From positions 27,602-91,601 of the forward strand of contig DBYP01000018.1 in the NCBI GenBank assembly GCA_002309885.1: a stretch of 64,000 nt of DNA, written 5' to 3'. Shown piece after piece: positions 42,001 to 48,000 of this stretch. Position 1 is the stretch's first letter. Each line of letters starts with the position of its first letter. A program made the position numbers. Source of the stretch: Verrucomicrobia bacterium UBA1183. GTDB taxonomy: Bacteria > Verrucomicrobiota > Verrucomicrobiia > Opitutales > UBA9783.

Positions 42001-45000
42001 GCGCATTAAAATTATCGCAAGCTAACGCTGAAAGCTCAATAGGTGGAAGATGACCGTGTACTTCTTTGTAGGATAAAATCGCGGTACGCAGCAAGGAAAG
42101 CTCTTGAAGGAGGCTATCTACCCTGTGAGAATCGCGTGAATGTTTGAAACCGCTCAATCCCAAAATGGTCAGTGTCCCAACGATAAAAAGGACGACCAGT
42201 ATCTCGATAAAAGTAAAAGCGTTTTTCTTCATGTTTTATTGCTTTTTACCTTGGTTTGCAACCGCTTGCTGAGCTTTAGCAATGGCCTCCGCATCCCCCA
42301 AATAATAGTGCTTTATGGGCGTTAAATCGTCGTTTAATTCGTAAACGAGAGGTATCCCGGTTGGGATATTCAATTGAACGATGGCGTCATTGGACATGTT
42401 GTCCAGATACTGAACCAAAGCCCGCAGGGAATTACCGTGCGCAACAATGATAATCTGATTTCCTGCTTGAATTGCAGGTGCTAAGGTCGATTTCCAATAA
42501 GGCAATAGGCGTGTTAGCGTATCTTTCAAACATTCCCCTTTGGGCATCTGCTGTGCCGGGATATGCTTGTAACGCGGATCTCTTCCGGGGAAACGCTCAT
42601 CATCTTCGGTGAGTGCTGGCGGGCAAACATCGTAACTTCTGCGCCAAATTTTAACCTGCTGTTCACCGTATTTTTCGGCAGTTTCGGATTTATTAAGTCC
42701 CTGTAAAGCACCGTAATGCCGTTCATTCAGCTGCCAAGCGCGTTCTACGGGAATCCACATTAAATCCATTTCATCCAGTGTAATCCACAATGTTCGAATG
42801 GCGCGCTTTAAAACAGAAGTATAAGCCCGATCAAATGTAAAATGATTTTCCTTTAGCAATTTGGCTGCACTCAACGCCTCTTGTTTTCCCTTTTCCGACA
42901 AATCAACATCGGTCCATCCCGTAAAACGATTTTCTTGGTTCCAAACACTCTCTCCATGCCTCAATAACACTAAACGCTTCATACACTCAATAAAACACAA
43001 AAGAGTAGTAATGGCAAGAATAAATCCGACAAGAGTAGATCAGTCTTTCAACTGTATTGCGTCCCAAATTTGGCAAAGAGCGCAGGGATGTTGGATGGAT
43101 GCCGTTGGAGTATATGTCTTGGGAATGCAGATGTCTGCATTTGGTTCATGAGAAACTTGAAGACAATTACCTTCCAAGTTTTCGCAAATGTGCCATCCAG
43201 AGAGGATAAACAATGGACGGACAAGTTTTTCAATTTCGGGTGATAAATCCAAAAAACAACATTTTATATTGTTTGTTTTGGGAGTGTTGGAAACGAATTT
43301 TTCGGCTTGCACGGGAAAATATAACGTAAAAGAAGTCCCTTTATGAGGAACACTTTGCAGCAGAATGTTGCCGTTGTAGCGTTGAACAAGCCCGTAGACG
43401 CTGGGTAAACCTAAGCCGGTACCTTTACCGATAGGTTTTGTGGTAAAGAAGGGTTCGAATATTTTCCCTTGAATTTCGGGTGCTATACCAACCCCTGAGT
43501 CTTTTACCGTGATTTTTACAAATTTCCCCTTAGGCAAACCTTCGGGTTGACCCTCGAAATTTTCACATTCAATGAGCAGTTTCCCGCCGTTCGGCATGGC
43601 ATCACGGGCATTGACACTCAAATTGACCAAAATTTGATCCAGGGCATTAGCAGGGATGCCCATTGTCCACAGCAGAGGTGCGATATGGGTTTCCAGCACG
43701 ACTTTATCACCCAAGTAGTGAGTTAACATCTGCAGCGTTTTATCGATCGTTTCCGAAGTTGAATTTTCCTCAACCGCCACGGGCGAAGTTGGTGTTTGCC
43801 GTGAAAAATCCATCAATTGTCGAACGAGGGAGGCCCCTTTTTCGCCGGCATTTTTTATACTGTGAATGTACGAGGCTGTTTTGGAGTCCAAAGATTTTGC
43901 ATTTAGAGCAAGATCCGAACAGCCATTGATGATAGAAAGCAAGTTGTTAAAGTCGTGCGCAATACCGCTAGCTAAACGACCAATTGCCTCGATTTTTTGC
44001 GTTTGCCGCAAGCTCTCTTCCATTTTCCGAAGAACAGTAACATCACGAATCGTAATGACAAGTTCGGAATTGGATGGCTCATTCGATAGCTTAGATAATG
44101 TCCATTGTGTCGTAATGCTTTCTCCATCGATACGAACCATGGGCGTATCCGCACAAAAAGCCTCTTGTGCCCGCAATGCTTTTAAAATATCTGGATTGAA
44201 ATTTTCGCAAAACAATTCCGATAAAGGATGCCCTATGGTTGCTTCTTCGGAAGTTTTTAATAATTTAAAAAAGCCCTGATTAGCATAAAGAATAGTGAAA
44301 TCGGTATCGCATTGATTCACGATAAGAACACCCTCATGTGCGTTTTTTAGAGCTGTTGCCAGTCGTTGATTATTCCGATCGGCATAAAATCTTTCCGAAA
44401 AATCCTCCAGCGAAACAACGTAACTTTGTGTATCATTGAAAATATTTTTTACCTCCGAAAAAGAAACATATAAATGCCGATTTTCTTCATTTTTATGAAA
44501 GACGACATGATTGGGGCCAGAAGTGGTTTTTGTTAGAAGTGTAAAAACCGAATCGAGGCGTTTGTTGTCTATGTACGGATCCCATAAAGGAAGAATATTG
44601 TCGATATGCTTGGTTAAAATTCTACCGATGGGTAACTGCAAAAATTGAATGCCTGCAGTGTTAACATAGGTTATATTTCCGGATTTGTTCAAAGAAAAAA
44701 TAGGATTGGGCAAGTTACCTAACGTTGCTGCCAAACGTAATTTGGTTTCTTTGGAATCTTTTTCGAGCTTTGCCTTATGGAATGCCATTTCAACCGTTAT
44801 CAAAACCATATTGGCAGTATACGGTTTCAAAATAAACCCAAAGGGTGAAGTTGCTTTAGCACGTTTTATGATGGTTTCCGAGGTGTGTCCGGTTAAGTAA
44901 ACCACTGGGATATCAAATTTTTCATGAATTTTTTTGATGGTATCGATTCCATCCAAAGCGCCCGCCAATGTAATATCCATCAATATGAGCATCGGCTTAT

Positions 45001-48000
45001 GCTCTTCGACCAAGCCGCAAGCGGTTTCGCCATCAGCGGCGATAGGTAAAATTGCGTAGCCTGCCTTTTGCAAAAGGATTTTCAAAATGGCGGCAGAATT
45101 GCTGTCATCTTCGACGATCAAAATACGATCATTATTATCCATTTCTAAGGCGCTTTTTGTAGTTGAAGATTTTCATTCAAAAGTTTTCGGTTGGCGTCCA
45201 ACAATGATTGTATGGTTGCCTGCTGTGCTTGCTTGACTTCAAAAGCTTGATAGGCGTCATTTATCGTATTCAGCAATTGTTCTCGCGTCCACGGCTTTGC
45301 CAAACAACGGAAAACTTCAGCATCATTGATGGCTTTCAAAAACATGTCGCTGGAAAGTACCCCTGTAATCAATACGCGTGAGCACATCGGCTGCGCTTGT
45401 TTTACTTGTTGTAAAAACTGAGTTCCAGGCATTTCTGCCATCCGCTGATCGGATAATACAATCGCAAATGTCCGTTTTCTGATTTTTTCTAAGGCTTCCT
45501 GAGCTCGCGTTGTCCCTTCGCATTCATACCCTTCCTGTTTCAAGGTTTCTTGCAGGGCTAGCAAAATGGGTGCATCGTCATCCAAAATAAGCAAAGGATA
45601 ATTTTTCATGTTACAATAGGAAATTTTAGATTAATAATCGACGTTTTTTCGTGCGTAATATTGTACGAAAAGCGACCGTTGTATTTCTCTAGATAGAATC
45701 GCATCATAGGACCATAAATTCGGGATAAGAGAAGGTGATTGTCCTTTATTTCCACTAAATCTTCCGTATTTAAATCCAGAGGAACATTGCTTTTTATCTG
45801 GCAAGCTACCGTATCTCCTTCGCAGGCGATATGTATATCTAACGCAGGTTTTGTGGCATTTTCAAAAGCTTTGATAGCCAAAAGGATCGTCATTAAAAAA
45901 ATGCGTTGCAGAAATGCCGGATCAAACTTGATAAGCACCTCCAAAGATTTGTCACGGGTCAAATTAAATTTAGCATGGGCTGGAAGCAAGCGTTCAAAAA
46001 GTGGCTGTAAATCGCTGACAAACGCTTGTAAATCGATGTAGGTTATATTGCCTGGCTCTGTATGATGAAGCTGTGATAGTTGTTTCAAAATTTCACGTTC
46101 TTTGTAGCAATTATCCCGAATAATGGCAAATTCCTCAACAGATACCGCTTGTTGTTTCGAGCAGTAAAGCTCACTTAACGCGAGGTTTCCCGTTAAACAA
46201 TTGCTTAAATCATGCAAAAGACAGCGTATTATCTTTTGCATTTGTTGTCCCCAAAATATCTCAAAAAAACCTTCTTCGCAACAATGAACCATACAGTATC
46301 TATTGTTGTAACGTTTTAGCGGAATAAAATCAAGCTAGAAAAGTGATTTCAAAGAGCATAAGCTCTTGAATGTCTACGTAATACAAAAATCCTTTGGAAG
46401 GAAACGCTAAGGGAATTTTTTGAAAAAAGCTTCTCTTGGGTTTTCGAAAACTACAACATGGTTGCCCTCTCCTATGGCTGTGAATTTTTAACTTGTGTAG
46501 ATGTGCTCTAAAACAGACAAAAAGCCCAAACAGCAAAGCGCTTGGGCTTAAGATTTAAGGAACCTTGTTTGTGTAAATTAGGCTAAATATTTTTTAGCTT
46601 GAAAGTAAGAAACTCCCTGTCGTGGGGCAGAAACCGGAATTTGATTTAAATGCTGCAAGTGCTTGATTGCATGTTCATTCAATCCGACGTTGCTCGTGAA
46701 AACAGGGGTGAATAACCCGCGTCCGCTTTTTGTTTTGGTGTTCGTTTCCATTTTTTTGTGTCTCCTAAATTATAGATCGCTTTCTGCGCGTTCTTCGGCT
46801 CGTTTCAGATAATCTTCGATGCGCGAAATCCACTTTTCTACGATTTCAACGAATGTTGCAAGTTGATCTTCAAAAACATTAAAATCACTCAATGGTAACG
46901 TGAATGATTTTGCAAGAACCAGCGATTGCGATTGCTTATCGATACCCAACGTTCCACCATCGGTTTCGTTCCAGAAAAAGTTGCCTTCCAGCGCCTTTTC
47001 AAAAATAACTTCTCTGCATTCTAACGGGATCTCTCCGATATAAGCGTAAATAACCAGTTTTTCGCCTTCTTCATCGAAATCCATATTGAGAACAATCTTC
47101 TCGTCGAATAGTAAAATGCAGTGGTTGTTGTCGTCTAAGCACAGATCTGGCAAGTTCAGCCCTTCACCAATGTGTTTTAAAAGCTCGTTTACATGTTCCT
47201 TCATCTCTTCTTGCTATTGTAAGCAGGTTTATAAAAAAATCTCAAGCAAAAAATTGTATCCAATATGTTTTTTAAGATGACGATGTTTTTTGGGGTAAGA
47301 TAGTAGAAATTTGAGGAAGAGATATTGAGAACCTTTTTGCATAAAAAATTTTGATTTAATGGTGTAGATATTATTTCTGGTGCGAAATATGCTGCACATG
47401 GGGTTATATGTGTAGGCGATGGACGACCTTACTTTTATTGCAATGGGGACTCTTTATTGGGTTGATTTATGGTATTGAAAAACCCAAAGGATTCATCCCA
47501 GATGGATTGCAAGCGGTTATCGATGAACCGATGTCGGAAATAGATACGCTTCCTTACATAAACGAAATAAAAACTTCAGAATATCTGAAAAGTACGTGGG
47601 GAAATCAAGTCGTTTTCGGTTGGATGTCTTATCAAAGGCACAATTTAATTCAGTGTGAACAGCAGTGGCAAAAAGCTTTAGGGACTTTTATGCCACAAGA
47701 CTTGAATAAAGTCCTCATCAAAGATTTATGTAAAATATATAAGACATTACAGAGTCCTATACGCTTTTTATTGTACGAAAAGTATGTTGAAACGTTTCCG
47801 AAAGAATCGGATGTTCCGCGAATTCATTTAACGTTGGGTTATTATTATTTGAATTACCAAGCATTTGATCGGGCGCTCTTACACTATTACAAAGTTTTAA
47901 ATGGTACATTCAATGTAGATCATTCACACCTTGAGGAGTATGAAAGCTATGTCATTTGGGCTCAGTTAGGGATTGCGCAGGTTTATTTAGATCAAAGAAA

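Follow-up and report, generated by a model that had tools for sequence, protein, structure and literature searches.

ChpT, a phosphotransferase of the CckA-ChpT-CtrA/CpdR pathway of Caulobacter and Brucella, consists of a DHp domain and a CA-like domain, is dimeric and cannot bind ATP. In this relay, which the PAS-containing kinase CckA powers, ChpT stands between receivers, and one of its downstream partners, CpdR, is a single-domain receiver. In the Bacillus relay, a kinase, the lone receiver Spo0F and a second receiver are connected through Spo0B, a four-helix-bundle His protein with a dead alpha/beta domain. Both ChpT and Spo0B are seen as kinases that have degenerated (PMC5898713). The general stress response of Alphaproteobacteria uses PhyT (formerly PhyP), whose ATPase domain is degenerate and whose His is conserved; initially taken for a phosphatase, it later proved to take phosphate from the single-domain receiver SdrG and pass it to a second receiver, PhyR (PMC5898713). 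RedE of the Myxococcus RedCDEF "four-component" system is kinase-like, does not autophosphorylate, takes phosphate from a receiver and dephosphorylates the single-domain receiver RedF (PMC2755868), while DivL and RetS use a histidine-kinase fold for something other than ATP-driven autophosphorylation. Here, a three-gene cluster (g1, g2 and g3) on contig DBYP01000018.1 of Verrucomicrobia bacterium UBA1183 (Verrucomicrobiota; Opitutales; assembly GCA_002309885.1) was compared with these systems. The window is the whole stretch analyzed, 64,000 nucleotides (nt) at positions 27,602 to 91,601 of the forward strand of the contig, and all coordinates below are positions within it. The product of g1 appears to be a histidine kinase that has lost its ATP site, and we tentatively read it as a His phosphotransfer protein.

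The open reading frames encode proteins of 228 (g1), 154 (g2) and 700 (g3) amino acids (aa), all on the minus strand; the overlap of g1 with g2 is 4 nt, and 2 nt separate g2 from g3. These calls agree exactly with the original prediction, which had placed three overlapping or adjacent minus-strand genes at 43040-46292. The features of the locus, in the direction of transcription, are:

46522..46549, minus strand: strong terminator-like hairpin with an 11-bp stem and a T run, between the CesT chaperone gene (5′) and g1
45606..46292, minus strand: g1, soluble histidine-kinase derivative of 228 aa without a sensor domain (open reading frame, Pfam, alignments, AlphaFold 2 model, Foldseek)
g1 residues ~6-75, minus strand: DHp hairpin with the H27 codon at 46212-46214 and the invariant motif LLHDLSNxLTGxLALSEL
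g1 residues ~84-228, minus strand: CA-like alpha/beta domain without N, G1 and G2 boxes
45145..45609, minus strand: g2, stand-alone receiver of 154 aa (Pfam, NCBIfam, alignment)
43040..45142, minus strand: g3, comprising the four features that follow
44783..45142, minus strand: N-terminal receiver of g3, residues 1-120, with D12/D13, D56, T84, F103 and K106 conserved
44033..44710, minus strand: tandem PAS modules of g3, residues ~145-250 and ~258-370 (Pfam, structure model)
43304..44020, minus strand: kinase core of g3, HisKA/DHp and complete CA domain, with the H396 codon (motif AHDFNN) at 43955-43957
43043..43270, minus strand: C-terminal tail of g3, residues 625-700, a small alpha/beta module (conservation, model)

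The hairpin at 46522-46549 probably marks the upstream boundary of the g1-g2-g3 transcription unit; no terminator-like site was found between g3 and gpmA, the next gene downstream. As read from the sequence, the three genes form a self-contained, co-translated signaling module in which only g3 has an ATP site.

Proteins of the window were scanned with Pfam and matches reported at E<=0.1. At this threshold, neither HisKA nor HATPase_c matched g1. NCBIfam gave only marginal kinase matches (E ~0.01), a PDB search with the single g1 sequence returned noise only, and a PDB search with the g1 family profile returned weak matches to the CckA DHp domain (E 0.016) and the KinB CA domain (E 0.035), which fit a kinase origin and are not decisive. 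An AlphaFold 2 model built from 12 family members (mean predicted local distance difference test score, pLDDT, 78.8) has a long helical hairpin from residue 6 and then an alpha/beta sandwich whose secondary-structure elements are ordered as in a Bergerat-type CA domain. When the model was compared to PDB with Foldseek, histidine kinases ranked first (5c93, YycG, HK853; E ~1e-10), with the RetS kinase region at rank 14 and ChpT (4fpp) at rank 45 (E 1e-8). The g1 family profile aligned with the g3 kinase core (DHp + CA) in hhalign with a probability of 99.4% (E 4e-21), placing g1 H27 on g3 H396, so the match between the H-box of g1 and that of the neighboring kinase in the original prediction is real. 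Identity in this alignment is 15%, and the two DHp domains are distant relatives. By model, Foldseek and hhalign, g1 has the DHp + CA fold of a class I histidine kinase core; no sensor domain or obvious membrane segment was found in it.

The boxes that bind ATP are gone from this fold. In alignments to intact orthologues and to g3, the N box NAxEA is replaced by LLAIKA, in which Leu takes the place of the Asn, the G1 box DNGxGF is replaced by SNVPLD, in which Ser takes the place of the adenine-binding Asp, and the G2 box HLGLGL is lost through a 7-aa deletion. Intact N, G1 and G2 boxes were looked for in g1 by profile alignment and not found, and the comparison with orthologues that retain all three bears out the original prediction that g1 lacks them. 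The residues of a competent kinase (the N-box Asn, DxGxG of G1 and GxGxG of G2) are thus missing from g1 and present in its orthologues P0015 and P0016. The HisKA phosphatase motif H-D-x-x-N is retained, with N31 at H+4, the position of T264 in HK853 (mapped from the HK853 T264A structure entry). Sequence and model together indicate that g1 descends from a small, sensor-less histidine kinase and has lost ATP binding while keeping His27, the receiver-docking DHp helix and a folded CA-like domain.

The relatives of g1 exist in two states. The degenerate state was found in the window protein, in P0002-P0014 and in loci L005 and L008, and in a deep branch (P0026/L017, 37% identical) with the N-box Asn changed to E, a G1 vestige "NDEGGF" and no G2. 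Intact boxes (NAxEA, DNGxGF, HLGLGL) were found in P0015, P0016, P0023-25 and P0027-30 and in loci L001, L007 and L010-L016, with Pfam HATPase_c matches at 4.6e-11 in P0015, 2.2e-12 in P0016 and between 1e-11 and 1e-12 in L013 and relatives. In a neighbor-joining tree of g2 and g3, and so independent of g1, the four degenerate operons group as a single clade (99.5% bootstrap) that has diverged down to 57% identity in g3. This monophyly indicates that the ATP site was lost once, before that divergence; its loss is the derived state, with sister lineages keeping an apparently intact kinase in the same operon. Exact copies of the window g1 are present on four metagenome contigs, one labeled bovine gut, and degenerate orthologues keep an open frame in the same operon down to 37% identity, so g1 is neither a chance open frame nor a pseudogene.

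The H-box LLHDxSN..G.LALSEL, including His27, is invariant in both clades (~30 family members). The CA-like domain of g1 has diverged further than g3: identity between the window and L008 is 58% in this domain and 84% in g3, and between the window and L005 it is 43% and 76%. The ratio of nonsynonymous divergence (dN) in the g1 CA domain to that in the g3 CA domain is 3.1-3.4 in the degenerate clade versus 0.7-1.1 in the intact clade. The proportion of nonsynonymous differences (pN) in the g1 CA-like domain is 0.25-0.39 in the degenerate clade versus 0.63-0.74 for synonymous differences (pS), where synonymous divergence (dS) is saturated and only pN versus pS and relative dN, not dN/dS, are usable. 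The domain has thus evolved faster since the loss and yet stayed under purifying selection. The clearest clade-specific substitution elsewhere in the operon is Pro14 of g2, fixed where g1 is ATP-blind, versus I, A or T in the intact clade; R441 and D/E445 in DHp helix 2 of g3 also track the loss in g1. From a by-eye alignment to the RR468 sequence, we take g2 Pro14, at a kinase-docking specificity position, to correspond to RR468 V13, one of the positions changed in HK853-RR468 rewiring (named in titles of structure entries).

The g1 family is small. A word-indexed search with g1 found 16 relatives; when 1.84 billion representatives were searched exhaustively with a profile, no more than 10 clusters scored E<1e-30 before generic PAS-kinases appeared. 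Fusions of a g1-like core to a receiver were also sought as Rosetta-stone evidence; these next-closest proteins are PAS-kinases with intact HATPase_c, and none is fused to a receiver. Among relatives with named records, the family was seen only in gut metagenome-assembled genomes of Opitutales (human gut) and Puniceicoccales (termite gut). A chlamydial origin, which the CesT and AtoS-like kinase genes had suggested, was rejected in view of these relatives.

Two calls of the g1 start exist, a public NCBI-derived call of 211 aa (P0001, starting at Met18) and the JGI/ENA call of 228 aa; a look-up found the 228-aa form on record but not P0001. Residues 1-17 (MVHCCEExFFExFW; window 46242-46292, minus strand) are conserved among orthologues and, together with the JGI/ENA call, make the longer start more likely. 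The N-terminal Cys pair is conserved in the degenerate clade only.

All catalytic motifs are present in g3, which is thus a complete kinase. Pfam recognized Response_reg (1.5e-18), two PAS stretches, HisKA (6e-8) and HATPase_c (5e-21), and H396, N507/N511 (N box), D548xGxG552 (G1), F562/F565/F566 (F box) and G572/G576/G578 (G2) are invariant in 28 g3 orthologues. The original prediction of a 700-aa protein with an N-terminal receiver, PAS domains and a complete kinase core is borne out by these assignments. The CA domain is 36% identical to that of CckA and superimposes on 5idm with a root-mean-square deviation of 1.7 A (full g3 model, Foldseek), and the best NCBIfam match of g3 is CckA (2e-78). 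It nevertheless falls short of the CckA models NF046020 and NF046026 (264 and 210 bits versus a cut-off of 1000) and of the LvrB hybrid response regulator model NF047466 (123 bits, kinase core only, versus a cut-off of 500). In the N-terminal receiver, all active-site residues are present, the aromatic switch residue F103 among them, and N-terminal receivers of kinases resemble regulatory (terminal) receivers, not shuttles (Bruderlin et al., PMC9981736).

Beyond residue ~613, g3 continues for ~85 aa without a Pfam assignment; the original prediction was right that this tail has no assigned family and had overestimated it at ~95 aa. The conserved part (residues 625-700, ~75 aa) was modeled as beta-alpha-beta-beta-...-alpha at pLDDT ~80-90, with C629, W650, SH664-665, PK674-675 and HP685-686 as conserved features. 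It matches no family significantly, its relatives were detected among the orthologues only (PDB searched with the tail profile returned noise), and Foldseek with the full g3 model gave kinase-core matches only and none for the tail. The idea that the tail is a vestigial receiver was rejected as unsupported: hhalign against the g2 receiver profile gave the expected register but a probability of 0.13.

Response_reg (7e-20) is the sole Pfam domain of g2, and its active site is intact (D11/D12, D54 with its codon at 45448-45450, T82 and K105). It had been described as receiver-only, which holds for its domain content but overlooks a conserved C-terminal heptad helix of ~35 aa (residues ~120-152; L136/L143/L150, N140/N147). 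Cys102 is invariant; at its position the switch Phe is found in 2rjn, which is the closest solved homologue and belongs to an HD-domain regulator as its receiver. Receivers without an aromatic switch residue are associated with an intermediary role (Bruderlin et al., PMC9981736), so g2, with Cys102 at this position, looks like an intermediary receiver. The best NCBIfam match of g2 is the receiver and linker of an HD-GYP-type regulator (4.5e-36), and its nearest relatives among the matches listed are receivers of HD-domain and NtrC-type regulators; Spo0F is absent among the 25 of 78 NCBIfam matches listed. Judged by these matches, g2 would at best be analogous to Spo0F and not homologous to it in any specific sense.

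In all lineages whose DNA context was retrieved, a small kinase-like gene, a ~155-aa receiver and a ~700-aa REC-PAS-PAS-kinase come in this order, overlapping or abutting; contigs end early in the third gene in L025 and inside it in L009 and L012. The flanks of the operon are unrelated between lineages (RND efflux/MnmA/H+-PPase; HemN; peptidase M16/EF-Ts; MreBC/FKBP; others). Judged by this conservation, g1, g2 and g3 are an obligate module.

The architecture of g1, a DHp domain with a dead CA domain, had been likened to that of Spo0B, and the likeness holds as a design principle that Spo0B, ChpT and PhyT share. ChpT is close to g1 in composition, and the core of CckA, which powers its relay, resembles that of g3. 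However, g1 has no HPTransfase (PF10090) match, the only weak HPTransfase match in the cluster falling on the CA domain of g3 (E 0.034, below cut-off), and true kinases are better structural matches of g1 than 4fpp; g1 is also of independent origin, and its intact-kinase orthologues are extant. The receiver of CckA is C-terminal whereas that of g3 is N-terminal, no CtrA-like output is present, and the host belongs to Verrucomicrobiota rather than Alphaproteobacteria. PhyT shares with g1 the degenerate ATPase domain, the conserved His and the ambiguity between phosphatase and phosphotransferase. It is membrane-anchored with a periplasmic domain and of the HRxxN (HisKA_2/HWE) type, whereas g1 is soluble and of the HDxxN type, and the PhyT kinases and SdrG are scattered in the genome whereas g1 is operon-linked.

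The cluster shares with the Bacillus relay the logic of a kinase, a lone receiver, a His protein with a dead alpha/beta domain and a second receiver. Homology to Spo0B and Spo0F did not stand: g1 matches no Pfam family above noise (which covers SPOB_a/SPOB_ab if the Pfam-A copy holds them), and the nearest listed relatives of g2 are the HD-domain and NtrC-type receivers. The Spo0B context markers obgE, L21 and L27 (PMC6136694) are absent at the cluster, which is flanked by the CesT gene (5′) and gpmA (3′); a Spo0A-like output is missing too, and g2 has a coiled-coil extension that Spo0F lacks. RedCDEF may be an analogous case in that all of its parts are two-component proteins without an output domain (PMC2755868), but it differs in having four proteins, including a dual-receiver protein and a membrane kinase. 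DivL has Tyr in place of the His, PAS sensors and a membrane anchor, and RetS is a large hybrid sensor, whereas g1 is a minimal 228-aa core that keeps its His.

We infer that g1 still exchanges phosphoryl groups with one or both receivers. The reading we favor, with a probability of about 0.4, is that g1 is a His phosphotransfer node of the ChpT, Spo0B and PhyT kind, fed by g3; this reading, which draws on sequence and on analogy with these systems, was chosen because His27 has stayed invariant for long without kinase activity, because the design is that of ChpT, Spo0B and PhyT, and because PhyT provides a precedent. In this scheme, g3 would autophosphorylate on H396 upon a PAS-sensed signal, the phosphoryl group would move to a receiver, most simply to D54 of g2, and would then be passed onto H27 of g1 and from there to a second receiver, either the N-terminal receiver of g3 itself (D56) or a regulator encoded elsewhere. 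DHp proteins of this kind act in both directions, so with g3 off, g1 would also draw phosphate away from the receivers.

Several points weigh against this scheme. The original prediction that no DNA-binding output is encoded nearby holds for the whole 64-kb window, in which no output-domain response regulator or histidine-containing phosphotransfer (HPt) protein was found; nor was a terminal output regulator or HPt protein found in the operon or at any orthologous locus. At E<=0.1, g1 matches neither ChpT/HPTransfase nor any other Pfam family. The effector-bearing relatives and conserved coiled coil of g2 fit an output protein better than a passive, Spo0F-like shuttle, the H-D-x-x-N motif with N31 is equally compatible with a pure phosphatase role, and the sister clade has the same operon with g1 as an apparent kinase, so that the architecture can do without a relay. 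Which way phosphate would move, and between which partners, is a guess, and His-Asp-His-Asp flow, a RedE-like phosphatase or sink and a pseudokinase regulator fit the sequence data about equally.

It is rather unlikely, though a serious alternative, that g1 is a dedicated phosphatase or sink for g2~P or for the g3 receiver, resembling RedE, with g2, phosphorylated by g3, as the real output acting through its coiled-coil tail. Asn31 occupies the H+4 phosphatase position of the retained motif, g1 and g2 are translationally coupled neighbors like a cognate kinase-regulator pair, and g2 combines a conserved, output-like coiled coil with a receiver of an effector-type subfamily. Loss of the kinase activity with retention of the phosphatase activity would be the smallest functional change from an intact ancestor, and RedE, which dephosphorylates RedF and does not autophosphorylate, is a precedent (PMC2755868). 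A pure phosphatase, however, does not strictly need a phospho-accepting His, yet His27 is invariant throughout the degenerate clade; PhyT was given the same role on similar evidence and proved to be a phosphotransferase (PMC5898713); and RedE itself accepts the phosphoryl group en route, so that this model and the phosphotransfer model overlap.

We consider it improbable that g1 is a pseudokinase regulator that moves no phosphate, either binding g2~P and controlling g3 allosterically in DivL-like reverse signaling, or forming complexes or heterodimers that block the g3 core in a RetS-like way. That its CA-like domain is folded and under selection without a catalytic role would be explained, as would the substitutions that accompany the loss in g1 (g2 Pro14, g3 R441 and D/E445); RetS kinase-region structures are among the top structural matches of g1, and DivL is a precedent for a repurposed kinase output domain (PMC4211667). 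But the His is replaced in DivL, while in g1 both His27 and the rest of the H-box are invariant, and the 15% identity of the g1 and g3 DHp domains in the profile alignment argues against heterodimerization. Very improbable is a persisting kinase activity of g1, or phosphorylation of its H27 in trans by the g3 CA domain: His27 and Asp28 (H+1) are kept and g1 is always co-expressed with a complete g3 CA domain, but the Mg-binding Asn, the adenine-binding G1 Asp and the G2 lid are all lost together, no HATPase_c signal is present in g1, the faster evolution of the CA-like domain after the loss fits relaxed catalytic constraint, and trans-phosphorylation between such divergent DHp domains is unsupported here.

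A more specific form of the phosphotransfer reading, in which phosphate would pass from g3 H396 to g2 D54, g1 H27 and back to the g3 receiver at D56, is also improbable. It would be a closed loop giving delayed self-feedback of the kinase, with the sister lineages representing the pre-relay state. If true, the family would offer a natural before-and-after pair, a phosphotransferase born from a kinase in an otherwise unchanged operon.

Downstream (3′) of g3, with no terminator between, lie gpmA (His_Phos_1), a prepilin-type pseudopilin gene (N_methyl; weak GspG match) and an AtoS-like PAS histidine kinase gene (40610-43000, minus strand); the kinase has 385 aa, is complete and is an orphan, with no partner regulator in the window. 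This trio follows the operon in L005 and begins in L019, and unrelated genes replace it in L008, L001, L011, L013, L017 and L023. It was rejected as part of the system, since conservation in the closest relatives only (L005, L019) is ordinary synteny, and the suggestion that the pseudopilin and PAS-kinase genes are the output of the cluster falls with it.

Just upstream of the operon is a CesT-family type III secretion chaperone gene (46770-47204, minus strand; Pfam 4.6e-24), which was rejected as an operon member because the terminator-like hairpin lies between it and g1 and because its place next to the operon is not conserved. In L013 (Puniceicoccales), a 134-aa open reading frame that is chaperone-like by eye (6495-6899, minus strand) and an 837-aa one (3976-6489, minus strand) adjoin the operon, both divergent from it, and in L001 a YscX gene (16458-16711) is near it. 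Gut Opitutae seem to carry type III secretion genes, and their link to the operon may be coincidental; no literature on type III secretion in Puniceicoccales was found.

Elsewhere in the window are a BatA-D-like operon (29044-36315, minus strand; MoxR AAA_3 ATPase, DUF58, two VWA proteins, TPR proteins and BatD) and a 216-aa ankyrin-repeat protein (55807-56457, minus strand; Ank_4 3e-27), the ankyrin repeat being a eukaryote-like domain frequent in host-associated bacteria. A 617-aa open reading frame without a Pfam family (49827-51680, plus strand) adjoins the gene of a 374-aa protein with two NUDIX stretches (48659-49783, minus strand), and a 576-aa protein (17926-19656, minus strand) whose sole match is an ATP-synt_ab nucleotide-binding domain (4e-26) may be Rho or an ATPase of a secretion system.

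DHp proteins that derive from a kinase and are ATP-blind are a well-known kind of component, and no new signaling principle is involved. What is new is that one arose independently in Verrucomicrobiota, that its compact operon combines a kinase whose receiver is N-terminal with a receiver that has a coiled coil and, most of all, that both intact and degenerate orthologues are extant in this same operon. For phosphotransferases such as ChpT, Spo0B and PhyT, no intact ancestor is, to our knowledge, at hand for comparison. The same operon in two states in related uncultured gut Opitutae, with one deep lineage that has a G1 vestige, is an experimentally tractable pair. It lets one ask what a circuit gains or loses when a kinase turns ATP-blind, whether such a protein ends up as relay, phosphatase or scaffold, and which few substitutions, such as g2 Pro14 and g3 R441 and D/E445, accompany the change.

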